A DNA stretch of 64,000 nucleotides, from the IMG/VR virus record IMGVR_UViG_3300005937_000010, positions 1-64,000 of that record; one strand, given 5' to 3'. The notes beneath the pieces are model-generated. The model was not told the DNA's origin and did no database searches. It saw only the letters and a program-made list of their open reading frames with translations. The position numbers were made by a program, and so were the translations under genes. This document shows positions 1 through 64,000 of this stretch, piece by piece; position 1 is the first letter of the stretch, and every line of letters begins with the position of its first letter. The stretch comes from a virus (taxonomy: Duplodnaviria; Caudoviricetes).

Positions 1-530
1 CCTGCCAAGACCTGCGGATCGCCCGCTTCGGTGCCAAGCATGGCTCCCAGGCGGGCTACCTCGTCCACGAAACCCGTCATCGCCGCCATGCGCTGACCCT
101 GCGGGACGTTGGAGAACGTGGAGAAGAACCTTGTCATGTATTGCTGAATGTCATTGACGGCGATGCCGACCTTGTTCGACTCCAGAATCGCCTGATCGCC
201 TACATCTGACAAGAAGCCCTGTCCTGGCCCGGTATACCGGCCGGTCTGCTCATTCAGTTCGCCTGCCAAGGATGCAACACGGCCAAGCTGGGTCTGAAAC
301 TCAGCCAGGCGTCCGATGGCCGCAGTCACGCCAAAGACGAACTGGCCTGCCAAGGCATAGCGGGCGGTCGTCCCAATGGCCATGAGTTGCCGTTGGAACA
401 GCCCCATCTCTTTGTTGGTCTGACGGATCTGCCCCTGCGTCCTGCCAAGACCAGCATTGATACGGTTGAGCGCGGCTTCCAGACCACGACTCGATCCGGT
501 GATTTCGACGTTCAGGCGGCGTGTGCTCAC
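1..530 (-). CDS. Tape measure protein, N-terminal part (runs off window)
   Basis: Open frame from GTG 530, overlapping the upstream TGA: MSTRRLNVEITGSSRGLEAALNRINAGLGRTQGQIRQTNKEMGLFQRQLMAIGTTARYALAGQ. It is helical and Ala/Gly/Gln-rich and follows the tail chaperones. Confidence 0.65.
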   Translation of the reverse strand, partial: MSTRRLNVEITGSSRGLEAALNRINAGLGRTQGQIRQTNKEMGLFQRQLMAIGTTARYALAGQFVFGVTAAIGRLAEFQTQLGRVASLAGELNEQTGRYTGPGQGFLSDVGDQAILESNKVGIAVNDIQQYMTRFFSTFSNVPQGQRMAAMTGFVDEVARLGAMLGTEAGDPQVLA

Positions 531-901
531 TTACGGCTCCCTGCTACGTGCTGTGGCTGGCCAGTGTGCTTGGTGAAGAACTCCTCAAAGAAGATGACGC
601 GAGCTTCCTTCTCCTCCTCGCTCATCGACAGTTGGTGCTCAAAGTATTCTCGTGGTCGCTCGATCATCCCCTCCAGCTTTTCTTGGTACTCTGCCAAGAC
701 ATTGACCGGCTCATGGCAGACTTCACAACGAGTCTCCTCTAGCTTGGGGAGGCATCGGATATGGACTCGTCGTTTCCGTTCGTCGATGTCAACGAGTCTG
801 TTGAGCCAGATCCAGACAAGCTGACCGCTAGTAGCTCTGGAGCGAAAATCGAAAGGTAGAGTTTGGTTATCGCCCATCGTCTGCCAGATAGCGCGTTCCA
901 T
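527..901 (-). CDS. Tail assembly chaperone C-terminal extension (gpT-like), probably reached by -1 frameshift
   Basis: Overlaps 739-1335 in the -1 frame, is open from the A7 run at 919-925, and lies just before the tape measure gene. Confidence 0.55.
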   Translation of the reverse strand: MERAIWQTMGDNQTLPFDFRSRATSGQLVWIWLNRLVDIDERKRRVHIRCLPKLEETRCEVCHEPVNVLAEYQEKLEGMIERPREYFEHQLSMSEEEKEARVIFFEEFFTKHTGQPQHVAGSRK

Positions 902-1335
902 TCGATTCGCTCCGAGGCTTTTTTTAGGTCGTCCAACATCTTGTCAGTCAGGCCATCGGCTGTCGGACTCGCGTAGTCCATCAAGAGTGTCAGATGGTCT
1001 GCCAAGTGGTCGATTTCCTCCGGCCCCAGTTCGTCCACCAACGCCTCGATGGAAGGAAAGACCTTCCTTGTCAAGTCATCCGGGTCACGCAGCGAGTGCC
1101 ACACGTCCGAATGCACGACAGCGCGATTGCTCGCCTGGAGTCCGGCCGCGTTGTCGGGAAAGCCGAGGCTGGCCGCGTAGATGACGCCAGCCTGCGTGTC
1201 CCGCTCTGCCAAGGGCACCATCGCCACCCGAATCTCCGGGTGCGCCAGGAGAGCCGGGAACTCCGGTGCCTCCTGGCCAAGCCGCATGCGTGTCATGCGG
1301 TTGGCTTCCTTGATCTGCTCAAAGATGCTTGTCAC
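739..1335 (-). CDS. Tail assembly chaperone (gpG-like)
   Basis: 198 aa, between tube and tape measure, contains the slippery site, Ser/Thr-rich C-terminus. Confidence 0.6.
   Translation of the reverse strand: MTSIFEQIKEANRMTRMRLGQEAPEFPALLAHPEIRVAMVPLAERDTQAGVIYAASLGFPDNAAGLQASNRAVVHSDVWHSLRDPDDLTRKVFPSIEALVDELGPEEIDHLADHLTLLMDYASPTADGLTDKMLDDLKKASERIEWNALSGRRWAITKLYLSIFAPELLAVSLSGSGSTDSLTSTNGNDESISDASPS
919..925 (-). other. Candidate -1 ribosomal slippery site A-AAA-AAA
   Basis: Minus strand reads GAC CTA AAA AAA GCC. A -1 slip gives AGC CTC GGA GCG AAT CGA ATG GAA, in frame with 527-901. An A7 run is rare in this GC-rich genome. Confidence 0.55.
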
Positions 1336-1652
1336 TGTCCCGCCCTTTCAAACTCGTCCCGCGTCTTGAATACCTGCCAACCTTCCGGCACTCCGTAGAA
1401 GACCTTGTGGCAACTCCCGCATGTGGCTGCCAAGACGAAATCAGCCATTGGGCCGGAGCCACGAGAAGCTGACACGTCAGGGTTCAGCATCCCACAGTGA
1501 GGGCAGAACGGAGGCCCGCCCTCGTAGTTGGCCTGGCGTTCCTCATCGGCCATCTCCACGATGCGCTCGTTGGAGGCAGCCAGCCGCTCGTTGCTTTCGG
1601 CCAGTGCCTCCAACGCGCTCATCATTCTCGCTCTTATCTCTGCCTCGCTCAC
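1332..1652 (-). CDS. Hypothetical protein with Zn-ribbon (CPHC...CGSC)
   Basis: Two CxxC pairs; GTGA-type overlap with the downstream gene. Confidence 0.6.
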   Translation of the reverse strand: MSEAEIRARMMSALEALAESNERLAASNERIVEMADEERQANYEGGPPFCPHCGMLNPDVSASRGSGPMADFVLAATCGSCHKVFYGVPEGWQVFKTRDEFERAGQ

Positions 1653-1658
1653 AGCTTG

Positions 1659-2069
1659 TCAGTTCCGCCTGGGCGGGTCGTACCCCGGCACCGAAAAGTC
1701 CGCGTTGAGCGTGACCTGATCCAGTGTCGAGTTGACACGCACATTGTTCCACGCACAGTTCTCGTAGTAGTGCCAACCGTTCGCTCCACGACGGCACGAG
1801 ATGTTGAAGCTCTTGAGTCCGAGCATCCACTCCTCGTCCTCCATTCCCGCGTCCTGCCCCGGCCGAAGCAGCACTGCGCTGAACGAGACGGTGCCTTCGT
1901 CAGCCTTGCGTACGGCGCGGCAGATCGGGCCGTCGTGCCCGAAGCCGCCCATGTAGCGGACTTCCTGGCGGTGCTCCTCGTCCATGGTCTGCGTGGCCGC
2001 GTAGTGGTTGCCCGCGATCACGATGCCAAGGTCAGGTGCGTTCATTGCCTCCAACCAGCCGTTTGCCAT
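1659..2069 (-). CDS. Tail tube protein
   Basis: 136 aa, beta-rich, directly after the sheath gene, with an AGGAGG RBS. Confidence 0.55.
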   Translation of the reverse strand: MANGWLEAMNAPDLGIVIAGNHYAATQTMDEEHRQEVRYMGGFGHDGPICRAVRKADEGTVSFSAVLLRPGQDAGMEDEEWMLGLKSFNISCRRGANGWHYYENCAWNNVRVNSTLDQVTLNADFSVPGYDPPRRN

Positions 2070-2082
2070 TGTTCCTCCTTTC

Positions 2083-3201
2083 CTACGCTGCGATGGTCAG
2101 CGTGCCGCGCAAGTCGATGACTTGGTTGTTGCGGACGATCTGGCCGTAGTAGTCGATAATCATGCGCCGCTGATCGGGAGAGGCCGTGACCGTGACGCCG
2201 TAGCCAAGCTGCCCGTTCGGCATCGTGCGCGGCTCCAGCCAGTCGTTGTGGCCCTTGAGCCACGTCTCCACGAGCTTGCCTGCCAAGGCACGGTTCGTCT
2301 CTGTGTTCCCCCGGCGCAGGAACTTCTCTGTCTCCAGCGCGGAGCGCAGGCCGAGGAAGATCGAGTCGCGGATCAGAAGCGTCTGGAGCGCGTCGTACGT
2401 GGTGTCCGTCGAGAACGTCATGCGCAGATGGGTGATTTCCGCCTGCCCGCCCCGACCCTGCCGCAACGTGGACGCTCCGGCTGCCAAGGCTGTGGCATGA
2501 TCGTTCGTCGGAGTGCCCGCTCCCGACTTGAGCCGAAGCACCGGCATCGAGGATGCGTCCCTCTCGATTCCAAGTGTGCCTGCCAAGGGCAGCGTGTCGA
2601 GGTCGTCGGTGATGTCCGGGTTGCGCGCTACCTCGCACGCCACCCGCGCCGCCGTCCACTTACCGCCGCGCAGCACTCCGTTCGTGTCGTAGTGGCCAGG
2701 GCCGATCAGCACGAAGCGCTTGGACATGATGGCCGTCGCCGCCGCTGTGAGGTTGGCAAGCGTCGTCGGCGTTGCCAAGCCGCCGAAGCCGAACTGCTTG
2801 TTCTGGATTCCCTCGGCGTACTCGCAGGAATCCGCGAGTGCTACCAAGTCGGCCTGTAGCTCCGAATCGGTGAGCCGGACACGGATGTCCGGGTTCTCCT
2901 CCAGGAGCGCCCATGCCGTCTGACGCGCCGGAAGCGTCGGTACCGACCCCTTGGCAGAGGCGACGGCCCACACGCCGTTGATGCCCTGACTCAGAACGTA
3001 CTTGACAAGTCCCGACAGGCTTGAAGCAGGGCCAAAAAGCGTGTCGGCGGCAGTTGAGTCTGTGATGTAGACAGGAATCGCCACAGCCTGCGAACCGGCG
3101 ACATCACCTTGTCCCTCGATCCCGATGACAAGGTACTGATCGAGTTGGAAGACGCCGGTAAGAGTGCTGGTGTCTCGGATTTCCGGGTAAATCTGTGTCA
3201 T
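2083..3201 (-). CDS. Tail sheath protein (compact, 372 aa)
   Basis: Sheath-like C-terminal pattern (LLIRDSIFLGLR...IIDYYGQIVRNNQVIDLRGTLTI), position after the neck genes, GAGGAGG RBS. Confidence 0.7.
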   Translation of the reverse strand: MTQIYPEIRDTSTLTGVFQLDQYLVIGIEGQGDVAGSQAVAIPVYITDSTAADTLFGPASSLSGLVKYVLSQGINGVWAVASAKGSVPTLPARQTAWALLEENPDIRVRLTDSELQADLVALADSCEYAEGIQNKQFGFGGLATPTTLANLTAAATAIMSKRFVLIGPGHYDTNGVLRGGKWTAARVACEVARNPDITDDLDTLPLAGTLGIERDASSMPVLRLKSGAGTPTNDHATALAAGASTLRQGRGGQAEITHLRMTFSTDTTYDALQTLLIRDSIFLGLRSALETEKFLRRGNTETNRALAGKLVETWLKGHNDWLEPRTMPNGQLGYGVTVTASPDQRRMIIDYYGQIVRNNQVIDLRGTLTIAA

Positions 3202-3218
3202 GCCAAGCTACCTCCTCC

Positions 3219-3815
3219 TCACACTTCGGTGTGGTCAACAAGATCGAATCCCTCCGGTACGACCCACGGCTCATCCGGCACAGTCTTACTGAACGCCTCA
3301 AGTACCAAGGTCATGTTCACCGTCCTCCACACGGGCATGTCGCTGATCCGGTCAGTCCAATCACGCCCACCGTCAAAGCCGACGAGCGTGACACCGCCAA
3401 GCTGTTCGTTGAAGTCCAGGCGCGCACCGTTCGATCCGAATATGTCGTGAAGCGCCTGGACAACCTTCATGCGCATCGTCTCGCCACCGGCATCCAACGT
3501 GGCCCAAACACCCACGTCGAAGTTGACAATGCGCCTGTGTGCCTCCTGAACTTGGAACGTGCCTGACAAGTGGCTTGGATCGCTCCATTCGTCCACTCCT
3601 TGTACGCCGAAGGCCCACGCCGGGGAGCTTACATCATCCCGCTCAAAATGGACAAGCACCTTGTCCAGCGGATGCGGCTGGATGATCTGCGCCGGATCGG
3701 GGAACGACATCTGCACCTGGATGACTCCGTTGTTGAGCTTCGACTTGGCATAGTCCTCCAAGCCGCGTGTCAAGCTGACAAGCCAGTCCTCCGGGTCATA
3801 CTGGTAGATCGTCAC
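3219..3815 (-). CDS. Putative tail terminator/completion protein
   Basis: 198 aa just upstream of the sheath gene; coupled GTG start. Confidence 0.5.
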   Translation of the reverse strand: MTIYQYDPEDWLVSLTRGLEDYAKSKLNNGVIQVQMSFPDPAQIIQPHPLDKVLVHFERDDVSSPAWAFGVQGVDEWSDPSHLSGTFQVQEAHRRIVNFDVGVWATLDAGGETMRMKVVQALHDIFGSNGARLDFNEQLGGVTLVGFDGGRDWTDRISDMPVWRTVNMTLVLEAFSKTVPDEPWVVPEGFDLVDHTEV

Positions 3816-4441
3816 CCTGGCAACCTCCCTTGCGGGCCAGCGATGTTCGGGTTGGCAGCCCCGCGATGCTCGTAGCCAATCGGTGGGTTGTGCAGAAGGA
3901 ACGGGCGCACACGGCGCTCAAACGACTGGAACCGACCAGCCGAACTGCGCCGGGGTGCCAAGACCGAATCCACGAACGACTCTGCCGTGCGCGTCGTCTG
4001 GATGAACTTGAGCATGGCCATGAACGACATCTTGAGGATCGGCCTGCGCGTGCGCATGTAGAGGCCGCTCTCGATCAGCCACGCCTCGTACACGTCGTTG
4101 TAGAGCATCCAGTGAGCGTTGCGCACGCGCCGGATCGTCCACCCTTGGTAGTACCGGCCGGTGATCCTCTGCACAGGGATCTTGAAGGCGAAGGCCGGGA
4201 CGCTGCGGTAGCGCGGAGCCACCGGCCCTTGAGAACGTTTGCGAGCTTCCATCTGCACGATGTTGATGAGCACCCGGATAAGCGTGTCCAGGCCATAGTG
4301 CAGCTTGTCAATCGACGCCTTGTTGTCGAGGATGTAGTCCTCGATCTGGCGGATGCTCTCCAGCGTGATCTTGAAGTCCGTGGGCGGCGCATCGAAGCGG
4401 CCACCGCCGGGGCGCGTGGGAGAAAAGCCGGTGCTAGGCAT
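3812..4441 (-). CDS. Putative neck protein (HK97 gp10-like position)
   Basis: Basic protein with a HWMLYNDVYEAWLIESG motif resembling the gp10-like YAxxVExG; start placed at ATG 4441. Confidence 0.45.
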   Translation of the reverse strand: MPSTGFSPTRPGGGRFDAPPTDFKITLESIRQIEDYILDNKASIDKLHYGLDTLIRVLINIVQMEARKRSQGPVAPRYRSVPAFAFKIPVQRITGRYYQGWTIRRVRNAHWMLYNDVYEAWLIESGLYMRTRRPILKMSFMAMLKFIQTTRTAESFVDSVLAPRRSSAGRFQSFERRVRPFLLHNPPIGYEHRGAANPNIAGPQGRLPG

Positions 4442-4937
4442 TGACCCTATCCGTCCTGACAAGTCTCATGCCAAGCTCCCAGTGGTGATCGGGGTCGCCG
4501 TCGAGGTCGGGCAGCTTGTCAGCCGCAATGACCACGAAGCGCCTCCCGTCGTAGAGCACGTAGCTGTCGCCCGTGTCCGAGAAGTCCTCAAACTGGAGCG
4601 TGTGCCCCTGCCAAGTTACCGGGAAGATCCCGATGTGATCGTCGGCCTGAATCTCGCCGGGGAACAGGCCCGCATAGCGCTCGCTGGAGCGGCTGCGCCG
4701 GACGCCGCCAGCCGACACCGGCTGCATCGCGCCCTTGACTCCGAACTGCTCCACAGCCGGGATCATCCCGACCTCGTTGCAGACTTCCGCTGCCGGGTTG
4801 TCGATGTGCCACTCCGGGTCGCGGTTGCCCTCGCGCGTCCGGCAGGGGCATGGCGTGCCAGGCATCTCACGGTGGTAGATGCAGTCGCTCCCGTGGGCCT
4901 CCAGCATCGCTGTGAACTTGGCAACCGTGACGGCCAT
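4434..4937 (-). CDS. Putative head-closure protein
   Basis: CPC motif and C-terminal HHWELGMRLV; TAATG coupling at 4937; position in the neck cluster. Confidence 0.5.
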   Translation of the reverse strand: MAVTVAKFTAMLEAHGSDCIYHREMPGTPCPCRTREGNRDPEWHIDNPAAEVCNEVGMIPAVEQFGVKGAMQPVSAGGVRRSRSSERYAGLFPGEIQADDHIGIFPVTWQGHTLQFEDFSDTGDSYVLYDGRRFVVIAADKLPDLDGDPDHHWELGMRLVRTDRVNA

Positions 4938-5662
4938 TACTCCAGCCCCACCCATCCGATCATGCGGCTGTGGTCGAAGCTTGTCAGTCCAACGTCGGAC
5001 TTCGGCTCCGCAAGCTGGAGGATGACCGACATCGGAACACCAAGCTGCTGGTAGGCCAGTTCCAGGAGCTTGCCAAGCGCATCCTCGCCCGAAATCATCT
5101 GGCTCATGCTACTGCTCGCAGCCGTGCCGGACTTGGCAGAGACGAGGCCGATGGTGAACGAGTCCACGTCACCGCCGCCGGTCACGGTTGTCGAAACCGA
5201 TGTTACCATCCTGACAAGCTGCGAGCGGTAGAGAGTCATCAACACGAGGCCGTTGAGCACTGCGTACGAGCACTCCAGGAGCGGGTTGTACGGATCGTCG
5301 TGGAAGTAGGTTTCCACCACGCCCTCTGCCTCCTGCGTGACGATGCTCTCGTTGAGCGAAGGATCCCTCTGCATCACGCGCTCGATCACCTGGCCAATGA
5401 CCATCGGCCCCTGGCCACCCTGAACAGCTTGGGACTGTGGGCCGATGATTGCACCTTGGTACTCCCACGCGATCTTGAACCAGTTGGTGGGAGAGACTGC
5501 ATTGGCAGTCGTGTAGTACGAGATGTACGTCGGGTAGACGCCAATGTTCGTCGTGCGCTCGATTTCGTTGTACGGGCCGGTGCTGGCAGCGGCCTCGTAG
5601 ATACGGAGCGCAACCACGTCTTCCTGCGGCGGTGGTGACAAGTCAATACGGACTGCTGCCAT
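4937..5662 (-). CDS. Putative head-tail adaptor with N-terminal beta-domain
   Basis: 241 aa with a helical C-terminal half typical of adaptors; TAATG coupling. Confidence 0.45.
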   Translation of the reverse strand: MAAVRIDLSPPPQEDVVALRIYEAAASTGPYNEIERTTNIGVYPTYISYYTTANAVSPTNWFKIAWEYQGAIIGPQSQAVQGGQGPMVIGQVIERVMQRDPSLNESIVTQEAEGVVETYFHDDPYNPLLECSYAVLNGLVLMTLYRSQLVRMVTSVSTTVTGGGDVDSFTIGLVSAKSGTAASSSMSQMISGEDALGKLLELAYQQLGVPMSVILQLAEPKSDVGLTSFDHSRMIGWVGLE

Positions 5663-8280
5663 TAGCTCACCCCTGTGATGTGAGGCTCATCGAGAGCAAA
5701 CTCCGGAACTGGTACCTCGCCGTTCGACGGCGAGACTGCCAAGATGTACGGAACGAACATGGTGACGCTAACAGATATGCCACCGTTCATGGGCGAGACG
5801 CTGAGCAGGATCGCCGGTTCTTGCCTGGTATCGACCAGCCCCGGCAGCGTGTAGCCCGCTCCGGCCGAGACGAGGACGAAGCCGCGTACCGTGGTCATCG
5901 TCGGTCGGAAGCCGATGGCAAGTCCAACGACACCGGGGGCAATCTGGACTCCGAAGACGACGGTGGAGGACTGCTTCTTGCCAAGTACGATGGGAGCGAT
6001 GCCCGACCCGAAGAACGAGACTCCACGCACCGTGGTCGCCGGAAGCCGTCTCCCGATGGGAACCTGAACCACTCCAGGAGCCACTGAGAGGCCGCGTACG
6101 GCCGTCGCAGCCGTTTTCCGACCAATGACCAGGGTGGCGGTGCCAGCGCCGCTTAGAACGGCTCCTCGCACCGTCGTGGCTGCCAGGCGCGTGCCGATGG
6201 CGAACTGCTGCGGCGCGATCAGCGTAAGCTGGATGCCACGGACGGTCGTGGCGGCAGACAGCTTGCCAAGCGAAATCGCAGACGGAATGATGGTGATGCC
6301 ACGAACCACCGTCGCGGAAGCTCTGCGCCCAATCGTAATCGGTGCCAAGCCAGGAAGGAGGGTGACACCGCGAATCACGGTTGCCGTCAGCTTCTTGCCA
6401 ACAGCAACCGTGACCGCTCCGGCCGCGACGAGCGTAGCTCCACGCACGGTGGTGGCATTGGTCTTCTTGCCAAGAATGACAGGGGCGGCTCCCGTCGGGA
6501 CGAGGGTGACGCCACGGGGGGTAGTGACGTTACTCGACTTCCCAATCGGGATGTTCACTCCTGACGGTGCAAGTACCAAGCCGCGTACGGTCGTCGCGGC
6601 GGTCTTCTTCCCGATGGTGAGGGTGACTGTGCCGACCCCTGTCAGCGTCGTCCCACGTACCACCGTGGCAGCAATGCGTCCTAGAACAATCGGTGCTGCG
6701 CCAACCGAGTAGACCTGAGCGCCGTAGACAGTCGTCGCAGCCGCGCGCTTGCCAATCGCCAGCGTCAGCGTACCCGCGCCTGCGAGCGTAGCTCCGCGCA
6801 CCGTCGTGGCATTGGTCTTCTTGCCGATGACAAGGGTGGCAGTTCCGGCTCCGGTGAGCGTGGCACCCCTGACGGTCGTCGCCGTAGTCTTGGCACCGAT
6901 GGCGAGTGTGACCGTCCCGGTACCCGTGACCGTTGCACCGCGCACTGTCGTGGCGTTGAGCTTCTTTCCGATGACAAGATTGGTTGTGCCCGCCCCGGTG
7001 AGCGTGGCCCCACGCACCGTGGTCGCGTTGAGCTTCTTTCCGATGGGCAGGCTTACAACGCCAGGGGCAAGCGTTGCTCCCCGGACGGTCGTGACCGTCG
7101 TCTTACGCCCGATGGGAAGCTGAACGGTTCCTGTAGCCGCAGGGGTGACGCCACGCACCACCGTGACACTGGCCTTCGTGCCAAGCGTGATCCCGAAACC
7201 GGCAGAGAGAAGGACAACGCCGAAAGCGCCGGTTCCACCATACGGCTCCTCTCCGTAGCCGTTCGCACCGTACGAGCTATAGCTTGGTATGTAACCAATC
7301 GTCAGTACCGCCGGAGGCGGCACGATCTGGACGCCGTACACCGTCGTGGCGACTGTCCTCTTGCCAAGCTGAACAGGAGCCGCGCCTGCGGGAACGACAG
7401 TCGCTCCGCGCACGGTAGTGGCAGCCGCGCGCCGTCCGATGGCGACAGGCACGTCGCCTGCGCCGGTCAGTGTCATGCCACGGACGACGGTGACGGACGC
7501 TACCCGGCCGATGAACGGCTTGATGTCGGTCGGGAGCGTAGCTCCTCGCACGACGGTAACTGACAAGACATCGCCAATCGCAACCGGCACAGTCCCGGAT
7601 GCAGAGACGGTGACGCCACGCACAACCGTCGTAGAGAGAACATCGCCAACCGGCACATTAGAAGGAAGAACAAGATCAGGAGTGACAAGGCGCGATCCGG
7701 CAGGGCCGGTCGAGCCGGTGCGAATCTGAACGTCCGCCGAGTTGCTGCCACCCGCAGTCGTGATTTCCCATGCCAAGACGAAGAACAGATACTCGTTGGC
7801 CAAGTTGATCGTCGCGCCAGGATTCCAGGTAACAGCGCTTGTCACATCGGCCGACGTAGAGAGCGTGCCTGACGTGCCACCAACCACCGTCGCGCCGGTC
7901 AGTTCGGTCGCGCCAGAGCCGTCCGCGTTCGCGCTCTTGAACACCCGCATTCGCATCCGGCCCGACTGTGCCGATACCAAGGTTGCGCGCACAGCGAAAG
8001 TAAACGTCCAAGACGTGTTGGCGAACGTGCCTGACAAGGGAGCAGGAGTCTTGAAGGCATTGGCCGTCGCGCCGGTCAGGAAGCTCGCAGGCTTGGCAGC
8101 GGTCGTGAACGCGCCTGACGCCTGCTTCGTACCAGCATCGAACTCTGCCATGTTCGTGGAAGCGATCTTGGCAACTGTCCAGCCGTCAGCCCTGGTTGCC
8201 GCCGTCTGCGCCGCGCCGTCCACGAGCGCGCCGAAGTTACCGTCTGCGCCCGATGCGACGTAGTATGTCTTGGTAGCCAC
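5662..8280 (-). CDS. Large virion fibre-like protein with about 24 tandem 22-24 aa repeats (IGKKxxATTVRGATLxxxG)
   Basis: 872 aa, Thr/Val/Gly/Ala-rich; the repeats are directly visible in the translation. Confidence 0.7.
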   Translation of the reverse strand: MATKTYYVASGADGNFGALVDGAAQTAATRADGWTVAKIASTNMAEFDAGTKQASGAFTTAAKPASFLTGATANAFKTPAPLSGTFANTSWTFTFAVRATLVSAQSGRMRMRVFKSANADGSGATELTGATVVGGTSGTLSTSADVTSAVTWNPGATINLANEYLFFVLAWEITTAGGSNSADVQIRTGSTGPAGSRLVTPDLVLPSNVPVGDVLSTTVVRGVTVSASGTVPVAIGDVLSVTVVRGATLPTDIKPFIGRVASVTVVRGMTLTGAGDVPVAIGRRAAATTVRGATVVPAGAAPVQLGKRTVATTVYGVQIVPPPAVLTIGYIPSYSSYGANGYGEEPYGGTGAFGVVLLSAGFGITLGTKASVTVVRGVTPAATGTVQLPIGRKTTVTTVRGATLAPGVVSLPIGKKLNATTVRGATLTGAGTTNLVIGKKLNATTVRGATVTGTGTVTLAIGAKTTATTVRGATLTGAGTATLVIGKKTNATTVRGATLAGAGTLTLAIGKRAAATTVYGAQVYSVGAAPIVLGRIAATVVRGTTLTGVGTVTLTIGKKTAATTVRGLVLAPSGVNIPIGKSSNVTTPRGVTLVPTGAAPVILGKKTNATTVRGATLVAAGAVTVAVGKKLTATVIRGVTLLPGLAPITIGRRASATVVRGITIIPSAISLGKLSAATTVRGIQLTLIAPQQFAIGTRLAATTVRGAVLSGAGTATLVIGRKTAATAVRGLSVAPGVVQVPIGRRLPATTVRGVSFFGSGIAPIVLGKKQSSTVVFGVQIAPGVVGLAIGFRPTMTTVRGFVLVSAGAGYTLPGLVDTRQEPAILLSVSPMNGGISVSVTMFVPYILAVSPSNGEVPVPEFALDEPHITGVS

Positions 8281-17740: not shown

Positions 17741-18070
17741 CTAGATCCCGCTCTTGCGCCGACGGAGCGGGCCGGGGTTCGCCTTCTTGACCGTCTTCTT
17801 GTTATTGCGGGGCGGCTGCGGGTCGCGCTTGGTACTCCGCACCGTCGTCACGGACGTGGCGAAGCCGGAGCCGGTGTCCACGCCCTTCTGATCGGTGATC
17901 CGCGAGAACTCCGGCATGGTGCGGCCCTTGGACTCGTCACGCTTGATGAGCGTACGGATGCTGCGCTTCTTGAACACCGGCCAGCGGAAGGCACGCGCAG
18001 CGCCGTAGCTCTGCGAGCGCATCGTTGCGGGCGGCTGTCCTGACTTCGTTCTCGATACGATCCTTGCCAT
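17741..18070 (-). CDS. Small basic protein (109 aa)
   Basis: Arg/Lys-rich; GAGGGGG RBS; stop abuts the scaffold start. Confidence 0.65.
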   Translation of the reverse strand: MARIVSRTKSGQPPATMRSQSYGAARAFRWPVFKKRSIRTLIKRDESKGRTMPEFSRITDQKGVDTGSGFATSVTTVRSTKRDPQPPRNNKKTVKKANPGPLRRRKSGI

Positions 18071-18074
18071 CTTG

Positions 18075-18212
18075 TCACCCCCTCTGCCTTACGCGGCGGT
18101 TGTTTGAGTTGGGCGCGGCATACCTCGGGCCATAGATGCCGGGGAACTTGCGCGTCTTGGCAAGGTTCGTACCGCCCTTGAGAAACTTGGTCTTCTTGAC
18201 GATGCGAGGCAT
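18075..18212 (-). CDS. Basic micro-ORF, 45 aa (MPRIVKKTKFLKGGTNLAKTRKFPGIYGPRYAAPNSNNRRVRQRG)
   Basis: Translated by hand; TAATG coupling with the upstream ORF. Below the ORF-track cutoff. Confidence 0.65.
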   Translation of the reverse strand: MPRIVKKTKFLKGGTNLAKTRKFPGIYGPRYAAPNSNNRRVRQRG

Positions 18213-18334
18213 TAGCGCCGCCTCCGTCGTCCACGCACCCCGCGTGTTCTGAGGACGCGGATCGCGTTGGCACGCAGTGTCCTCGGAGATGCGGCCGTGA
18301 TGCTGCCCTGTGGTGCTCCTAGTACCTGTGGCAT
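18212..18334 (-). CDS. Basic micro-ORF, 40 aa (MPQVLGAPQGSITAASPRTLRANAIRVLRTRGVRGRRRRR)
   Basis: Translated by hand; the ATG directly follows the upstream TAG. Confidence 0.6.
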   Translation of the reverse strand: MPQVLGAPQGSITAASPRTLRANAIRVLRTRGVRGRRRRR

Positions 18335-18547
18335 CTACTTCCTCCTTCTCCGACGCTTGGCAGCCGCTCGCTTGCGTCCACGCGCGGCCATGCGTGCCAT
18401 CTTCTTCTTCCCGTACTTCTTACGGCCCGCAGCGGCAGCGACGGCATTTGGGTTCCTCGCTCCGCTACGGCGCGCACTGGCAGCGACAGCCTTGAATCGC
18501 TTTCCGCTGCCAAGCTTGGCCTTCCTGCGGCCTTTGCGGCGTGCCAT
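18335..18547 (-). CDS. Protamine-like basic protein, 70 aa (AKLGSGKRF...GRKKYGKKKM)
   Basis: About 45% Arg+Lys; AGGAGG upstream; coupled to both neighbours. Confidence 0.75.
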   Translation of the reverse strand: MARRKGRRKAKLGSGKRFKAVAASARRSGARNPNAVAAAAGRKKYGKKKMARMAARGRKRAAAKRRRRRK

Positions 18548-18548
18548 C

Positions 18549-18674
18549 TCAACGTCCCTTCCTCCTGCGTGTCACAGCCCGCATCCGCATCGCGGCACGC
18601 TGCTTCGGATTGCGGATCTGACGCTTGCGCACAGGGCGCTTGCGGCGAATGCTCCTGGGCCTGCCACGCTTCAC
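18549..18674 (-). CDS. Protamine-like micro-ORF, 41 aa (MKRGRPRSIRRKRPVRKRQIRNPKQRAAMRMRAVTRRRKGR)
   Basis: GTGA overlap with the upstream stop. Confidence 0.6.
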   Translation of the reverse strand: MKRGRPRSIRRKRPVRKRQIRNPKQRAAMRMRAVTRRRKGR

Positions 18675-18787
18675 TTCTTCCTCTTTCTCCGCTTCTTGGC
18701 AATGCGATTGAAGTGGTGCTTGCGCGCCCATGCTGGCCCTTTGACCGCATAGGCCCAACGCTGCTGTCTTCTGCTTCGGGCTGGCAT
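18671..18787 (-). CDS. Basic micro-ORF, 38 aa (MPARSRRQQRWAYAVKGPAWARKHHFNRIAKKRRKRKK)
   Basis: TAATG overlap with the portal stop codon. Confidence 0.65.
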   Translation of the reverse strand: MPARSRRQQRWAYAVKGPAWARKHHFNRIAKKRRKRKK

Positions 18788-20313
18788 TATCTACTCCCCA
18801 CGGCAGCCTTGGCAGCCGACTTGCTGCCCTTGCCGTTGCTCGACGCTTGTGTCGGACTCGCCGGAGCGGGTGCCGGTACCGGAGGCTCGTAGTTCGTCTT
18901 GGCAAGACTCGCCTCCGTCTCCGGGTCGTTCATCTCCGGGAATAGGCTGCCAAGAATCTCGATGGCCGTCTCGTCCGCCATCCAGCGGTGCAGGGTGGCA
19001 ACATCCATCGCCAGCACGACTTGCTGGAGAGCTTGGGCCTTGGCAGCCAGATCGGTAAGCCGGAGCACCGGCCACACGATGCGTACCGTGACCGGAGTCT
19101 TACCGGAGCTTGCCAAGGCCATCTTGCAGAGCATGACGACGAACTCCCCGAAGCCCACGCGCTTGCGAGTGATCTTCTTCTCAAACGGCTGCACGGAAGC
19201 GTCCTTGTCCTGCGCTCCCATCTCCTTGAGGATCGCCCACTTCGGAATCTCCCCGGCGATGCAGATGCAGTCGATCAGGAACTCCAGGAGCGTCTTGGAG
19301 TCGCCAAGCACCGACTTGGCTTCGATGAAGCCAGCCTCCTCCTCCACGTTGAGCAGGTACATCTCGCGGCCGGTCAACTCCACCTTGGCATGCGGCACAA
19401 TCTGCCCGTTCTCGTCCAACGCAGCCGGGAAGTTGTGCTTGAGGAAGGCGTACACGTCCTTGAGCTTGAAGTACGCCTTGGGAGTCGAGTGGTACTTGTG
19501 CGCCGTGAGCGTCTGGAGCAGTACCTCGTGGAACGCCTGGATGAACGGGAGCACCGGCTCGATGTCAGACTGACCGCCTGCCAAGCTCACGTCGTACTCG
19601 TTGTAAGAGGGCCAGAGCGGAACGAACTTCCAGGTGTTCCGCGTCTGCCAGCTTGTCAGTTCGCGGTTCTCGGTCTTGTCATAGAAGCGGTACTCCTGCG
19701 GGGTGATCGTCTCGATGATGTGGTGCTCGCGCATGCGCGGAGCCACGCCCTGGAGTATCTCCTCCTCCGTGCGCTCGTCCATCTCGTACCAGTGGTTGAC
19801 CATCGCCATGATGACAAGCTCTGGATCGGTGGGATCGAACTGCAAGTCCACCGTCTCGGGCGGGATGCACTCGATCTTCCCGTGCATCCGATCCTCCTCC
19901 GTGAACAGCGGGTTCTGGAGGTTCGGCTGCCGGAAGCGCACGATGGCCTTGGAGTCCCTGAGCGTGTCACGCCACACTTGCTGGATCTGCGGTGCCCAGT
20001 GTTGGTGTAGGCACTTGTTCAGCCACGAGTCGTTCGTGCCGTTGTCGCTTGTCACGCTAGGGATCCCCACGTACTCGACCGTTAGGTCGATCAGGGGGCG
20101 CACGAAACCGGCACCGAGGTTGTACGCCGGGTTGTCGTTGCGGTAGAGGCCGCGAGCCACGTCGTACGTGATTTCGGTTCCCGACATCGCCGGACGATGC
20201 ATGAAGTTCCCGCCGTCCCAGGAGTTGCGCAGCGCCGTCCATGAACTGCCAAGCCCGATGCTGCGAGAGATGTCCACAACTTGCTCGCCTATCCAACGGA
20301 GTGGATTACGCAC
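18787..20313 (-). CDS. Portal protein
   Basis: 508 aa after the terminase; portal-like helical pattern (GQSDIEPVLPFIQAFHEVL...HKYHSTPK). Confidence 0.8.
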   Translation of the reverse strand: MRNPLRWIGEQVVDISRSIGLGSSWTALRNSWDGGNFMHRPAMSGTEITYDVARGLYRNDNPAYNLGAGFVRPLIDLTVEYVGIPSVTSDNGTNDSWLNKCLHQHWAPQIQQVWRDTLRDSKAIVRFRQPNLQNPLFTEEDRMHGKIECIPPETVDLQFDPTDPELVIMAMVNHWYEMDERTEEEILQGVAPRMREHHIIETITPQEYRFYDKTENRELTSWQTRNTWKFVPLWPSYNEYDVSLAGGQSDIEPVLPFIQAFHEVLLQTLTAHKYHSTPKAYFKLKDVYAFLKHNFPAALDENGQIVPHAKVELTGREMYLLNVEEEAGFIEAKSVLGDSKTLLEFLIDCICIAGEIPKWAILKEMGAQDKDASVQPFEKKITRKRVGFGEFVVMLCKMALASSGKTPVTVRIVWPVLRLTDLAAKAQALQQVVLAMDVATLHRWMADETAIEILGSLFPEMNDPETEASLAKTNYEPPVPAPAPASPTQASSNGKGSKSAAKAAVGSR

Positions 20314-20917
20314 CGTGAGTCACATCCTTGTCAGTGTGCTCTGCCGTCATCGCAAACAACTCGTCCACGATTTCGGCGGCGCGCGAGACGACTTCGGGCG
20401 GCGCATTCTCTGCCAAGGCTTCGATCAGCCCTGACTTGTCCACAAGCTCTACCTCGTGCTCCTCGCGGATCGTCTGCGCCGACTTGGACTCGCTCTTGTT
20501 CACCTTGGTAAGCCCGATCCGATCCAGGTACTCGCAGATCGCCTGGATTGCAACCTTGTCATCGTCCGTGGTGCGGGCGATTTCCGCGAGCATCTCCATC
20601 ATCTCAAAGCTGTGCGTCTGCCCGAACTTGACGGCCGCATCCACCATGTTCTTGACAAGCTCAGCGGCGCGGGCCTGCATCTCCGGCTCCTGAAACCACT
20701 TCTTGATGATGTCGCGTGACAAGCCGAGAGCGTCCGCGATGTAGATGTACGAGAAGTTGCTCGCCTTGTAGTGACATGCCAACTCGCGCTTCACCTGGCG
20801 GTCGAACGCCGTCAGGGAGCCTTCGGTCGTCAGCTTGCGCTCGCGCTTGGTACCCCTCTTGTAGCGGGCCTTCAACTCGTTGCGGGCCTCCGCTACGGTT
20901 GCAGGCGATTTACGCAT
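20306..20917 (-). CDS. HTH protein, putative terminase small subunit
   Basis: N-terminal HTH (YIYIADALGLSRDIIKKWF) and an AIQAICEYLDRIGL segment typical of TerS. Confidence 0.55.
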   Translation of the reverse strand: MRKSPATVAEARNELKARYKRGTKRERKLTTEGSLTAFDRQVKRELACHYKASNFSYIYIADALGLSRDIIKKWFQEPEMQARAAELVKNMVDAAVKFGQTHSFEMMEMLAEIARTTDDDKVAIQAICEYLDRIGLTKVNKSESKSAQTIREEHEVELVDKSGLIEALAENAPPEVVSRAAEIVDELFAMTAEHTDKDVTHGA

Positions 20918-30122: not shown

Positions 30123-30150
30123 AGGTAGTGCGTCTATGTCCGGCTGCGGA

Positions 30151-36731: not shown

Positions 36732-36768
36732 GCCTACCTCCTATGTCGTGTTTCGGGTATCGGCAACC

Positions 36769-36798: not shown

Positions 36799-36805
36799 GG
36801 TCTTG

Positions 36806-38051: not shown

Positions 38052-39383
38052 AGGAATCACCTTTACCCTTCATGTCGATTTTGAGTCCGACGCTACGGTA
38101 CCAAGCTTTGCGCCGGAGATACTGCCTGGCGAACACCCTGACAAGATCATCGAGGATGTCGTAGATCACCGTCTCTGTCTTGCCCTCGTGCTTCCTGGCA
38201 CCACGGCCGACCTTCTGGAGCACCGTGATGTCCGTGCCTGGATACGCCAGGACGATCCGGTTGAGCCGAGGGATGTCCACGCCTTCCTCAAACAACTGAG
38301 TGCCAAGAATACAGTGGATTTCCCCGTCGCGTAGCTTGGCAGTCAACTCGTGCTGCTTGCGCCTTGCCAGTCGCCCCGTCACCATCTCGACGTACTGGAG
38401 CCAGCCCTCATCGAAGTCGAATGCCAAGGCGATACAGTCACCGATGTTCTCCAGGTGCTTGATTTCCCTGGACAAGACAAGGACGCTGTTGCCCTGCTTG
38501 ACCTCGCGCACGACGATCTTGGCAATCACCATGTTTCGGTTGTCGTCCTTGACTAGCTCATTGAGGATGTAGCGGTACTGCGAGCCGTTGTAGCGCGTCT
38601 TGAATCCTGTCTTGACCGGGCGCACGATCATCGGCACCTGGCTCTGGAAAGCGAGCTTGTAGATGACCGGCCCGATGTTGAACCTGACAAGCGGCTGTCG
38701 GCCGTCTGAGCGCTTCTCCGAGGCCGTGATCCCGAAGCGGTAGTAGGCAGGGCACACGTTGCACAGCCAACTCCACGTCTCGGCTGCGGCATGGTGAGCC
38801 TCGTCCACGATCAGGCAGCCGAACTGTCTCCAGAACTTGCCACCGGAGCGGATGTAGCGTCGAATCGTCTGCGCCATCGCCACGGTGATGTGGCCAACTT
38901 GGCAGGTCTTGCCCTGGATTTTTCCCGGAGAACAACCTGGCACGGACTCCTCGATGCGATCCACCCACTGCTTGAACAGGGTGTTGGTGTGGACGACCAC
39001 AAGAGTCCTCGTCTTGGCAGCCGCCGCGAAGGCCAGCGCAATCTCTGTCTTGCCACGGCCAGGCGGTGCGATGACTTGCCCCTGCTCGTGCTGGAACATC
39101 GCCATGACGGCCTCCACCTGGCCGTCGTAGTCGGTAGCGTTGAGCGTCTTGGCATACGTCAGCTTGGGCATCGGCGGCTTGCTGCGCAGATCCTCTACCT
39201 CCAGGTCTGTCGGGAGCATGCTCCAGAGGCCACGAGGGATGCGCAGCTTGCCCGTCTCCGGGTAGTAGTCGTACGCCTGGACTTCGATGTCGTCGTTGTC
39301 CGTGAACGTCAGCGTGCGCAGGAGCTTGGTGCGCTGCTCGCGCGTAAGCTCCTCCACATCGAGGGTGATGAGCGCGTCCAGCT

Positions 39384-39387
<4 letters not shown>
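37948..39387 (-). CDS. Superfamily 2 DEXH helicase (XPB/ResIII-like)
   Basis: APPGRGKT, LIVDEAHH, GITASEKRSDG, EEGVDIP, QKVGRGAR. Confidence 0.9.
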
Positions 39388-52310: not shown

Positions 52311-52715
52311 TCAGGCTGCGGCCTTTCGCTTGGCCCTCGGCTTACCCGCCAACTGCTCGTGAAGCTCCTGCCCGACGTTGGTGCGCAGGCTCGGGAACTT
52401 GGCACTGAGCGACGGCGACTTCTTGATCTTGACCATGAACTTGTCAGGCTCATCGGCCCGGAGCGTCTTGGGTGGCTCATCGGGCTTGAAGGGGTTGCGG
52501 ATCTGCGTACCCTTCTTCCGTCCCGCCTTGACCACCGGCTCAAAGGAACACAGGCCGGTGAGATTGACCTTGTACCCCTGGATGATGCAGTCCGTCACTT
52601 CGTCCTTCAACGCCGTGAGGAACTTTCTGATCTGCGACTCTGGCGTGCCAGGGAGCCGCAAACCAATCTCGTGGATCAGATCCCCTTCGTTCAGTGAGAT
52701 TGGCCCCTTAGCCAT
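52311..52715 (-). CDS. HU/IHF-family DNA-binding protein
   Basis: GYKVNLTGLCSFEPVVKAGRKKGTQIRNPF; start ATG 52715. Confidence 0.85.
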   Translation of the reverse strand: MAKGPISLNEGDLIHEIGLRLPGTPESQIRKFLTALKDEVTDCIIQGYKVNLTGLCSFEPVVKAGRKKGTQIRNPFKPDEPPKTLRADEPDKFMVKIKKSPSLSAKFPSLRTNVGQELHEQLAGKPRAKRKAAA

Positions 52716-54077: not shown

Positions 54078-55094
54078 CTAACCTGCTTTCCTTGTCAGTC
54101 CCGCGTTTCGGGCTTTTTGCAAAAACACTGCCAAGGGGATTGCACGATCAATGCTGCGTTCGGCAAGCTCCCTCGTCATTTCGCCTGGATCTGTCTTCCC
54201 ACGCGAGTACCGACAAACGAACTGAGGCACTTTGTGGATGCGAGCTTGGCATTCCAGGATGTTCTCCAGTCCTGCGCTGTCCCTATCGAAGAACAGGTAG
54301 ATGCGTTTCGGGCCTAGCTGGTCGATCACTTTCAACTGCTTCGTTGAGATGCCACTGCCAAGAATCGCCCCGGCTGTGTGAACGCCAACTTGATGAAGCC
54401 GCACAACATCTAGCGGGCCTTCACACAGCACGAGGCCATGAGACTGTATCGACTCACGATCACACATGCAAGCGCCAAAGAGCAGGGAAGTCTTGATCGC
54501 TCCCTCTGTGTAGAGGTACTTCTGACGCTCCAGCCCGTCGATACGGCGGCGGATCAGGAAGCGGAACGTGCGGTGCAGATCGTATGCGGGGATAGTGATT
54601 CGCTCTGCATCCTCGTCCCAACCGATCTGCCACTTGCCACGGCTGTTCGCTTCGATCCCGCGTGTGTCGAGCCACTCTCGCGCCGACCTTGGCAGGTATG
54701 TGAACGCGCCACCATCTTGTGCTCGTTGATCCTGCGACACCGCATCGTCGTACCCGAAGGACTTGCGCACGCCGGGAGTGCCGAAGCTCTTTAGGTCGCC
54801 ATCCCTGACAGCACGCGAATGCTTGAGGATGGCTTGCCTAGACTCCTTGGCAGTACAGCCGGTGATGACCTGGATCGCGTGCTCGTAGCTGCCGCTGATC
54901 CCGCACTTGGCAAAGCAGTGGACAAGCCCCTGCTTGGTATTCACCTGGAAGTGGCGCTTGAACGTGTCGTGCTTCGGATTCGGGCACACCGTCTTCGGGA
55001 GGTACATGGGCGGTGGATGCTCGATCCCCGGCGGGATGTCGATGTACTGGCTCCAGAGTGCCAAGACATCAATGTACCGGCCAGCGAAGATCAC
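54078..55094 (-). CDS. dnaG: DnaG-type primase
   Basis: CPNPKH...HCFAKC zinc domain, KYLY, TOPRIM LCEGPLD and FFDRDSAG, DPGEM; GTGA-coupled start at 55094. Confidence 0.85.
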   Translation of the reverse strand: MIFAGRYIDVLALWSQYIDIPPGIEHPPPMYLPKTVCPNPKHDTFKRHFQVNTKQGLVHCFAKCGISGSYEHAIQVITGCTAKESRQAILKHSRAVRDGDLKSFGTPGVRKSFGYDDAVSQDQRAQDGGAFTYLPRSAREWLDTRGIEANSRGKWQIGWDEDAERITIPAYDLHRTFRFLIRRRIDGLERQKYLYTEGAIKTSLLFGACMCDRESIQSHGLVLCEGPLDVVRLHQVGVHTAGAILGSGISTKQLKVIDQLGPKRIYLFFDRDSAGLENILECQARIHKVPQFVCRYSRGKTDPGEMTRELAERSIDRAIPLAVFLQKARNAGLTRKAG

Positions 55095-62148: not shown

Positions 62149-63044
62149 ACTGCCAAGTTCCCTGAGACGGCCCACTCGTCCGTAGCCAGCTTGACAAGGG
62201 TGGCCAGCGCAAACTGACCGATGAACCTCAAGCCGGGGGTATAGCGCAGTGTCACGCCACCCGCAGCGGCAATCGTCGTGTTCCCCGGCCCATACTGCAT
62301 GACGTTGATGATCGTTCCGACCGGGAAGGCTACGCTTCCGTTACTTGGCACCGTGAGCGTGTTGGCACCACCGACGTTCATCCGAACCATGCCACCGGCA
62401 TCTGCGAGTGCCAAGGTGTAGTTGCCGCCCTGGATGCTCACGTTGGACACGCCAGTAAGCCGGATGTCGTTTCCAGCGCATGCGTTGTTGACACCCGTGC
62501 CCAAGGCTCTGAGAGCCTCTGTGGCGGGCGCGGCGCTCACGGAAGGCTTGAGAGTGTTGGAAAGCTCCGCAGCCCCTACAACGCCGTCCTGGATCGTCCT
62601 GGCGTCCACTGCGTCCGTGGCGATCAAGCTGTTCGTGATGATGCTCGCCGTGAGTGGCACCGAAACGGGCTGCCAGTTCGGGGCGGCATCGCTGCCCTTG
62701 TTCCACTCGATCTGATTCGTGGTCGTGTTGAGGATGATGAGGCCGTACGGGCGCGATCCTGCCGCGATGGCGTCTCGCTGCGCCGTCGTAAACGTGCCTG
62801 CGTACAGACCACCAAGCGCACGCAGGATGCCATCGGTGCGCAGCGCCGACGTGAAGCGTGCGTCGAGCGTCCCGTACTTGACAAGCTGGATCGCGCTGTC
62901 ACCAAGACGCACAGTTGCCAAGTCGATGGTCTGTGCGAAGTTGGCTTGATCTGCTTTCATGTCCTGGATCGCGTTCATGTCACCGGCATACAGCCGACCA
63001 TTCGGCGCGATCCCTGTTGCATCGAACGTCTTGTACCGGCTCAT
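62145..63044 (-). CDS. Tail fibre/minor tail protein
   Basis: C-terminal YTLALADAG...TLTVP...FPVGT.I...QYG.G..TI fibre-type domain. Confidence 0.65.
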   Translation of the reverse strand: MSRYKTFDATGIAPNGRLYAGDMNAIQDMKADQANFAQTIDLATVRLGDSAIQLVKYGTLDARFTSALRTDGILRALGGLYAGTFTTAQRDAIAAGSRPYGLIILNTTTNQIEWNKGSDAAPNWQPVSVPLTASIITNSLIATDAVDARTIQDGVVGAAELSNTLKPSVSAAPATEALRALGTGVNNACAGNDIRLTGVSNVSIQGGNYTLALADAGGMVRMNVGGANTLTVPSNGSVAFPVGTIINVMQYGPGNTTIAAAGGVTLRYTPGLRFIGQFALATLVKLATDEWAVSGNLAV

Positions 63045-64000
63045 GCGACTCCGATCCCTTGGTTATAAAGCTCCGTGATCTGCGCTTGTGACAAGGCGTA
63101 GTTCCAGACCCCTACCTCGTCAATCCTTCCATCGAACCACTGGCCACTGCTACCGCCAATCTCCAAAGCCGCCCCGCCTTGTAACAGAGGAAGGTTGCGT
63201 GCTTCGGCCGTCTGTACCAAGCTGCCGTTCACGTATGTTCGTATCTTGTCACCATCGAAGGTGGCTGCGACGAAGTACGTCGTGCCTGTGGAGATGAGCA
63301 CCGGGCTTGTCGCATTGTTGTTGTACGCATCGCTAGTCACTACTTCGACGTAGACACTTCCGGCAGCGAGTGACAAGGCATAGACCCCGCCTTGGATGAG
63401 AATGCGCCGCAAGCCGCTCACCGTGTCAGGCCGAATCCACGCCGCCATCGACACATGATGAGTCGGACTGTTCGGTACCGAGTGTGGCGCAGAGAGGTAG
63501 TCATTGGTGCCGTCGAAGTCGAAGCAGCCGCCGCCTGCTGCCAAGCTGTGGATCAATCCCGGTGTGGCCACGGTCGCTACCCCGCCGTTGACCGTAGCGT
63601 TGTTCCCGTACCCTGACGTGTCATTGCCATCGGCTGCCGCAATGTAGTGGGCCACCGGCTGCGTGTTGCGCATAGCCTTGGCATAGTCGAGTACGTCCGT
63701 CACGCTGTTGTTGATCGTGATGTTGGCAGAAGTCGGCGCAGGCGTGATCCGCTTCAACTCGCGGAGCATCACCGCCACGTCCGGGGTGATCGTGTTGAGG
63801 ATCTGAACCTCGTAGGCGAAGTTGCGTACGTCCTCGTAGACGCGGTAGCTCGACTTGAGCGCGATGGTGTCCGCGTAGAGCGGACGGCCAGCGGAGTCCA
63901 TGGCGATCCCATCCGTGCCGAAGCTCAACGACTCAGCGAACGTGGCGTTGATGTACTGCTCGATCACGCGGTCGCGGCGTGTGCGCGTGAACGGCCCCTT
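63041..64000 (-). CDS. Baseplate wedge/tail protein with C-terminal LamG (ConA-like) domain; N-terminus outside window
   Basis: The frame is open to the window edge. LamG motifs: FDGTNDY, SMAAWIRP, YFVAATFDG...YVNG, FDGRIDEVGVWNYALS. Confidence 0.75.
   Translation of the reverse strand, partial: KGPFTRTRRDRVIEQYINATFAESLSFGTDGIAMDSAGRPLYADTIALKSSYRVYEDVRNFAYEVQILNTITPDVAVMLRELKRITPAPTSANITINNSVTDVLDYAKAMRNTQPVAHYIAAADGNDTSGYGNNATVNGGVATVATPGLIHSLAAGGGCFDFDGTNDYLSAPHSVPNSPTHHVSMAAWIRPDTVSGLRRILIQGGVYALSLAAGSVYVEVVTSDAYNNNATSPVLISTGTTYFVAATFDGDKIRTYVNGSLVQTAEARNLPLLQGGAALEIGGSSGQWFDGRIDEVGVWNYALSQAQITELYNQGIGVA

Follow-up and report, generated by a model that had tools for sequence, protein, structure and literature searches.

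A seven-base word, TGCCAAG with a few near variants, is written several hundred times into the genome of the phage (Duplodnaviria; Caudoviricetes) held as IMG/VR record IMGVR_UViG_3300005937_000010. The window, i.e. the whole stretch of DNA that was analysed (positions 1 to 64,000), is the first 64 kb of this 72,088-bp single-contig virus record, which is rated complete. Selection for the word acts on the DNA itself, across the whole genome, and codon usage does not account for it. Its copies exclude one another at short range irrespective of orientation, single sites are conserved, sister clades of related phages carry different words, and the tail of a basic protein of 313 amino acids (aa), P0001, changes its type together with the word. 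The reading favoured here is that the word addresses a coat on double-stranded DNA that the phage itself would make, with P0001 as its likeliest reader, and a probability of about 40% is assigned to it.

A heptamer selected throughout the genome

The window contains 303 copies of the core word (154 TGCCAAG and 149 CTTGGCA), in addition to 38 TGACAAG and 67 CTTGTCA, and to TGGCAAG (16+26) and TGTCAAG (9+8) in their two orientations. Across the whole 72,088-bp genome there are 347 core copies (182+165), one per 208 bp, where base composition predicts about 9, i.e. an enrichment of roughly 38-fold on a zero-order expectation. The original prediction, made from the sequence of the window, had counted 15 core and 7 TGACAAG-type copies in positions 1-3010, which the present count reproduces, and had claimed that hundreds of copies run through the genome in both orientations, within genes and at gene junctions; the full counts bear this out and make the claim stronger than first described. 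A synonymous-codon shuffle had been set beforehand as a refuting test. Shuffling within genes gave 18.1±3.7 and 14.6±3.2 copies in the two orientations, against 151 and 148 observed in coding sequence, and an enrichment of about ninefold therefore persists in a test that errs on the cautious side, since copies of the word raise the very codon frequencies that enter the shuffle.

The word appears in four codon contexts (xAK, xLA, LGx and xPS/R) and in several reading frames, and its density is 5.9/kb between genes and 4.7/kb within them. An island rich in guanine and cytosine (GC) at 25800-33100 still has the word at full density (5.6/kb), and in the 1048-aa gene at 26386-29532 on the plus strand 10 of about 16 lysine codons fall within it.

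What is enriched is an asymmetric heptamer on its own, T[G/a][C/a]CAAG, whose flanks add no information (the largest flank value is 0.21 bit). Only a few of its 21 one-mismatch neighbours are enriched, namely TGACAAG (115 copies, 21-fold), TACCAAG (60, 11-fold), TGGCAAG (47, 5-fold), TGCCAAC (31, 3.4-fold) and TGTCAAG (17, 3-fold), the last being the stoperator-like form and the weakest of the four middle-base variants. Some are under-represented, with a single copy each of TGCAAAG and TGCTAAG where 5.5 would be expected, and with TGCCCAG and TGCCTAG at 0.3 of expectation. Taken together, the core, TGACAAG and TACCAAG amount to 523 sites in the whole genome with a mean gap of 138 bp. A search for a second enriched word after masking of the first left only modest, codon-like enrichments.

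The protein had initially been envisaged as a dimer on the palindrome CTTG-N-CAAG. The 9-bp palindromes CTTGNCAAG are indeed located at 3001, 16926, 18156, 36781, 36791 and 36819, but there are only 31 of them among about 590 sites; the palindrome is a minority form of an asymmetric site and the dimer proposal is not upheld. Smaller details of the same prediction were recovered, i.e. the CTTGACA -35 boxes at 35051, 36793 and 44911 and the junctions at 18068, 40925 and 52713 where GTGACAAG directly precedes ATG. With a further instance at 937, four gene starts have this arrangement, in which the word lies between the ribosome-binding region and the start codon.

Short-range exclusion without regard to orientation

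Gaps between the 347 core sites have a coefficient of variation (CV) of 0.70, against 0.99±0.05 when sites are placed at random. No gap exceeds 732 bp, where a maximum of about 1330 bp is expected, and 21 gaps are of 50 bp or less where 74 are expected. Inclusion of TGACAAG and TACCAAG renders the series of 523 sites more regular (CV 0.64) and these variants therefore behave as the same kind of site. Each orientation taken singly is near random (CV 0.89 and 0.94), as expected from random thinning of the combined series (0.84-0.85), and when one orientation is slid against the other the CV becomes 0.93±0.05, with none of 5000 shifts as low as the observed value. In the pair correlation, values rise from 0.11 for distances under 20 bp through 0.44 (20-40 bp) and 0.65 (40-60 bp) to approximately 1 beyond 60 bp. 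Exclusion holds for pairs of the same orientation and is at least as strong for pairs of opposite orientation, which, 20-40 bp apart, reach only 0.29-0.39 of the expected number here and in six other loci of the clade. This is the spacing to be expected of a factor that reads double-stranded DNA and is blind to orientation.

A check of spacing periodicity and orientation had been proposed with the original prediction, and its outcome is short-range exclusion in both orientations with no periodicity. Helical or nucleosome-like periodicity was rejected, as the pair correlation is flat beyond 60 bp and has no periodic peaks. A phased or "even coverage" order was also withdrawn, since soft exclusion over about 40-60 bp suffices to account for the low CV as well as for a largest gap so short.

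Coding copies comprise 151 in sense and 148 in antisense although nearly all genes lie on one strand, i.e. there is no polarity with respect to transcription, and the 182 and 165 copies of the whole genome show no genome-scale switch of orientation. Within genes, orientation tracks lysine content (rho 0.45, P 0.019); it therefore looks functionally neutral, chosen for coding convenience.

Conservation of sites and words of the sister clades

About 11 kb of the genome can be aligned to a 71.9-kb ENA contig at approximately 80% identity. In this alignment 47 of 74 sites are identical and 51 of 74 still read as a form of the word; control 7-mers are identical in only 32.6% of cases, about half as often (P = 5e-8), and single sites are under purifying selection. 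Where large-terminase genes are compared at 57-64% protein identity, few sites share a column and the density is maintained.

Relatives were collected by means of the large terminase and the P0001 protein and form two groups, termed A-type, to which this phage belongs, and B-type, the sister clade:

A-type contigs: L001, L002/G2, L003, L009, L138, L140, L153, L154, L156, L158, L159, L232
B-type contigs: L004-L008, L141-L143, G3, L162, L163

The A-type word is TG[C/A]CAAG, enriched 30- to 38-fold in at least 12 related contigs of 56-65% GC, and the B-type word is [T/G]GAAAT[T/C], enriched up to 37-fold at 46-57% GC. At about 56% GC both are found, TGCCAAG in L138 and L140 and TGAAATC in L004 and L007, and the word therefore follows phylogeny, not composition. 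The word of L010 is TGACAA[A/T], and contigs G1 and L161 show weak enrichment only. Spacing is regular in the relatives as well, with a CV of 0.59-0.76 at A-type loci and 0.77-0.81 in L162 and G3. An apparent cluster of B-type sites in L162 (6220-6360) was rejected, as it consists of overlapping palindromic GAAATTTC.

Contig L139 (positions 1-5283; 55% large-terminase identity, 65% GC) has neither a TGCCAAG-type nor a GAAAT-type word in 5 kb, but holds 12 copies of TCGACGA (about 19-fold); either the trait is absent there or the word has another form. No close relative of the phage was found in the INPHARED phage collection by near-identity and protein searches. A metagenome scan gave two loci, and single-protein scans with DnaE and with P0003, a neighbour of P0001, gave no further viral contigs. 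A triple-word pattern scan of IMG/VR proved no route to relatives, most of its matches being tandem repeats in viruses unrelated to this one. Outside the phage family, a Bulleidia sp. contig (L195, positions 1-6276) carries AATGGCG/CGCCATT 19 times in 6.3 kb against 0.8 expected, and also encodes a 731-aa transposase-like protein with AT-hook repeats.

P0001 and other candidate readers

The candidate readers, with the genes and sites that adjoin P0001, are as follows:

35790-36731, minus strand: P0001, 313 aa, the leading candidate reader (helix-extended-helix head, three-helix core, basic tails)
36773-36827, minus strand: four sites, three of which are 9-bp palindromes, forming the genome's one dense cluster
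36806-37204, minus strand: HIRAN-domain protein of the conserved cassette upstream of P0001 (PF08797, E 1.4e-13), kept in A- and B-type phages
37231-37491, minus strand: P0003, 86 aa, a weaker candidate reader, conserved in both clades
37948-39387, minus strand: ResIII/DEAD helicase, first gene of the conserved cassette
52311-52715, minus strand: HU/IHF-family protein P0002 (PF00216), an alternative candidate reader
20306-20917, minus strand: probable small terminase subunit, a low-probability candidate reader, adjoining the gpA-type large terminase

P0001 is built of an N-terminal helix-extended-helix (HeH), a disordered K/A/P linker, a three-helix core and a K/R/A/P basic tail. In the structural model the core (residues ~135-215) is confident, with a predicted local distance difference test score (pLDDT) of 85-96, as is the HeH, which weakly resembles the Rho N-terminal domain (Z 4.7). 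A profile search of P0001 against Pfam families and PDB sequences gave no match. Its relatives number 14 of A-type and more than 100 of B-type, and homologues occupy the same genome position in both types, preceded in order by the helicase, a protein of about 150 aa, P0003 and the HIRAN gene.

The two clades differ in the tail. AT-hooks (one to seven copies, R-G-R-P core motif) are present in 85 of the 85 homologues from a B-type query that keep the core signature, and in none of the 14 A-type homologues, including the protein of this phage. The AT-hooks of the B-clade homologues read RGRPKGSKNK, and the B-clade word contains GAAATT where it was measured; GAAATT is the classic AT-hook site, as known from HMGA proteins. 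This covariation of tail type with word type is the best pointer to the reader, and the change of word among relatives alongside a conserved basic protein of DNA-binding type speaks for a reader encoded by the phage, one that would coat or organise the DNA. The original prediction had also proposed a protein, probably made by the phage, that binds genome-wide for this purpose. Of that proposal, the genome-wide selection at the DNA level stands and the spacing fits a factor that reads double-stranded DNA, while the dimer on the palindrome is not supported.

Furthermore, the cluster at 36773-36827 flanks and overlaps the -35 box and spacer of the P0001 gene promoter. Relatives retain CTTGACAA as the -35 at this promoter, and those of A-type add one or two TGACAAG upstream. 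The P0001 leader (36740-36760) also has a CCCGAA(A/C) element directly 5' of the Shine-Dalgarno sequence, which is kept in A- and B-type relatives (L153, L156, L162 and L163).

Several observations weigh against P0001 as reader. The best structural match to its core has a Z of about 5, which is noise for helical bundles, and no DNA-binding fold is recognisable in it. The covariation of tail and word reflects two deep clades and is effectively one evolutionary contrast; moreover, the word was measured in only four genomes with a B-type homologue and is weak in two of these (G1 and L161). The -35 sequence CTTGACAA is kept in B-type phages even though their word differs, and part of the promoter cluster is simply promoter, because this -35 is conserved in both clades. 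No comparable site cluster was found at B-type P0001 promoters.

The remaining candidates are less persuasive. P0002 scores above the curated cut-off of the Bac_DNA_binding family (27.6 vs 22.4 bits) and is an alternative. P0003 has a sequence pattern resembling winged-helix proteins of the Xis/MerR type, a fold assignment made by reading the sequence only, and a Pfam search returned no family for it at E<=0.05. It is unlikely to be the reader, since changes of the word are not matched by changes in its putative recognition helix (that of the B-type L162 resembles A-type). A run of tiny, strongly basic ORFs (open reading frames) at 17741-18787, between the portal gene and a scaffold-like gene, could encode internal DNA-binding head proteins and provide further candidate readers.

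A proposed word-addressed coat

From these data we infer that a protein binds the word, and the following scheme is proposed. The heptamer T[G/a][C/a]CAAG would be a private address label, selected throughout the phage genome and read on double-stranded DNA, in either orientation, by a sequence-specific factor. Each bound unit would occupy or serve about 40-60 bp; extra sites within that range would therefore not be kept, and the remaining genome would be filled to approximately one site per 140 bp. The reader is most likely phage-encoded, and P0001, with its histone-H1-like basic tails, is the best candidate. Ranged along the genome, P0001 would serve to coat, compact or shield the DNA of the phage in preference to that of the host, and it would limit its own synthesis through the site cluster on its promoter.

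A bolder form of this scheme, held with more doubt than the coat itself, is a sequence-addressed viral chromatin, in which a heptamer every 140-200 bp would direct the phage's own H1- or AT-hook-like protein to assemble only on phage DNA. Such a chromatin, if it exists, would constitute a modification-free distinction between self and host, serving compaction, shielding from nucleases and defences, or global transcriptional timing. It would also mean that word and reader co-evolve, with TGCCAAG in one clade and GAAATT together with AT-hooks in the other.

Alternative explanations

A signal read by the host, whether by a nucleoid protein, as an uptake or recombination signal, or by a defence sensor that spares marked DNA, would account for the word without any phage reader, and is the likeliest of the alternatives, albeit still an unlikely one. 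The words differ between clades that also differ in GC, as if their hosts differed. One P0001 homologue (P0067), on a 186-kb contig of ENA sample ERZ25039464, accompanies RecA, a helicase and an HTH_3 protein and sits 3 kb from bacterial metabolic genes, for a racemase, a nitrilase-type hydrolase, GTP cyclohydrolase II, UPRTase and an ABC transporter; the contig may hold an integrated relative and could lead to the host, and some members of the family may be temperate. Yet two different words are found at equal GC, and the words shift by small steps (TGCCAAG, TGACAAG, TGACAAW, TGAAAT[T/C]), as expected of one drifting reader inherited with the phage. None of 357 sampled bacterial genomes is saturated with the word, although the sample may lack the host. 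Five individually checked genomes have 0.07-0.24 copies/kb; the maximum among 151 genomes from the phylum of Nesterenkonia alba, seven of them unpublished records (G130, G011, G058, G028, G158, G092 and G098) on which this negative partly depends, is 0.37/kb against 4.8/kb in the phage; and a pattern of paired sites peaks at about 4 per Mb in 201 genomes from the phylum of Algimonas against 305 per Mb in the phage. Searches of bacterial genome contigs gave nothing with a large-terminase profile and, with a P0001-family profile, only AT-hook look-alikes (small Bryobacterales proteins, a transposase-like protein and a membrane protein), and a search by way of the amidase gave no host.

The remaining alternatives must each contend with the exclusion pattern. 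Self-marking, in which a phage enzyme modifies a base within the word and dense marks protect the DNA from nucleases, would act on double-stranded DNA and be blind to orientation, and the phage has room for such an enzyme among the roughly 80% of its proteins without an assigned family. A mark that protects its own few bases, however, gives no cause for mutual avoidance over 60 bp, and no N6/N4, Dam-type or C5 methyltransferase domain was found (PF01555, PF02086 and PF00145 are absent in all six frames, where control genomes gave matches), nor any methyltransferase, transglycosylase or other modification family among the Pfam matches of 103 predicted proteins; self-marking is accordingly regarded as rather unlikely. 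Biased repair or gene-conversion drive, akin to very-short-patch repair, would convert near-cognates to the word without any function. Although it would keep existing sites conserved and fits the depletion of some one-mismatch neighbours, it predicts placement by precursor words instead of exclusion over 60 bp across both orientations and fails to explain three co-enriched variants with a single exclusion pattern; with no Vsr-like or methyltransferase gene seen, it is improbable. More improbable again is a signal for an enzyme that reads one strand, be it the phage primase (the Toprim protein at 54078-55094 with the DnaB-like helicase) or a Chi-like stop for a helicase-nuclease. The phage does encode a primase-like protein, a DnaB-like helicase, a DnaE-type polymerase and RecA, but a one-strand reader predicts an independent regular series in each orientation, and each alone has a CV of 0.89 or 0.94 against 0.70 combined; opposite-orientation pairs, moreover, exclude each other and there is no genome-scale orientation switch. 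The least probable of the alternatives is a packaging label, by which the small terminase would recognise the word and only phage DNA would be packaged. Small terminases are sequence-specific DNA binders, and the one here has the large terminase as its neighbour in all relatives and evolves rapidly, its orthologues sharing 28-48% identity. Known terminases, on the other hand, make do with one pac or cos region per genome, this phage has a large subunit of gpA (cos) type, and several hundred sites with a 60-bp exclusion would be left unexplained.

Comparison with known systems

The nearest precedents to a word-addressed coat each fail in at least one defining feature. The stoperators of mycobacteriophage L5 and other cluster A phages, read by gp71, are likewise asymmetric dispersed sites that also lie inside genes and have a phage protein as reader, as is proposed here for P0001; their 3' end, TGTCAAG, resembles the word, and one copy lies across an early promoter. 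A phage has a few dozen stoperators, each 13 bp long and oriented with transcription. Here, by contrast, the site is of 7 bp with no flank information, in 347-523 copies of balanced orientation, and no gp71-like protein was identified in the phage. The likeness to stoperators raised originally is thus not sustained as a functional reading, there being no transcription polarity (151 sense, 148 antisense) and TGTCAAG being the weakest variant. The closest functional analogue of the proposed coat is p6 of phage phi29, a phage-made protein that covers the entire viral genome and tells it apart from the DNA of the host. It recognises DNA shape with a 24-bp repeat and no defined word, whereas the present phage has a defined heptamer without periodicity (flat beyond 60 bp), and no relation to p6 in sequence or fold was found.

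Chi sites, read by RecBCD or AddAB, are short, asymmetric, over-represented words without flank information and are species-specific, much like the heptamer. Chi is read on a single strand, is polar, occurs about once per 5 kb and is carried by the host chromosome; the density here is 25-35 times higher, the spacing is orientation-blind and no sampled genome is enriched. Polarity of the Chi or KOPS type is equally lacking, with 182 and 165 copies in the two orientations, no switch of skew, and orientations that are mutually exclusive. HIP1 and the uptake sequences of Neisseria and Pasteurellaceae are also short words iterated through coding sequence. HIP1 is palindromic and methyltransferase-linked, uptake sequences are of 9-12 bp, and both are signatures of host chromosomes, unlike the asymmetric word described here, which is so far confined to the phage lineage; no methyltransferase was found in this phage. 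Finally, HMGA proteins and linker histone H1 share with P0001 the basic disordered tails around a small globular domain, and HMGA shares the AT-hooks of the B-clade homologues. P0001 has no relation in sequence or fold to the H1 winged helix, the protein of this phage is without an AT-hook, and neither H1 nor HMGA is placed genome-wide at a specific word. Full-text literature searches by word and by description retrieved no phage word at this density. The word is a real, strongly selected, family-wide feature without a described counterpart.

Genome and gene content

The 72,088-bp record has a 123-bp terminal repeat and 62.5% GC. Gene calling predicts about 103 genes, of which almost all lie on the minus strand, and a search for tRNA genes in the phage genome found none. 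The recognised genes, some of them given above, are:

Packaging and head genes: gpA-type large terminase, portal, capsid
Tail parts: baseplate J, gp25 and Mu gp48-type proteins, with Rpf-like and NlpC/P60 domains
Enzyme: amidase
Replication and recombination genes: DnaE-type polymerase, DnaB-like helicase, Toprim primase-like protein (54078-55094), RecA, ResIII helicase
Other recognised genes: HIRAN protein, HU-like protein

No family could be assigned to approximately 80% of the proteins. The GC-rich island at 25800-33100 (7.3 kb, 70.6% GC) has only one GATC and one TCGA, where the whole genome has 494 GATC (6.9/kb, about twice expectation) and 335 TCGA. It holds the only long plus-strand gene (26386-29532), whose 1048-aa product has a weak HEPN/AbiV-like match. 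The island looks like a restriction-avoiding region and is perhaps the first part of the genome to enter the cell.

Significance

The orientation-blind exclusion test separates readers of double-stranded DNA from readers of a single strand, and can be applied to other phages with iterated words. If a phage protein does read the heptamer, this would be the first virus to mark its whole genome by sequence alone and not by base modification, so as to set its own DNA apart from that of the host. It would also show how strongly such a label can act on coding sequence, to the point that most lysine codons of one 1048-aa protein lie within the word. Furthermore, word and reader would then constitute a testable co-evolving pair across more than 100 uncultured relatives, and a natural orthogonal DNA-address system.

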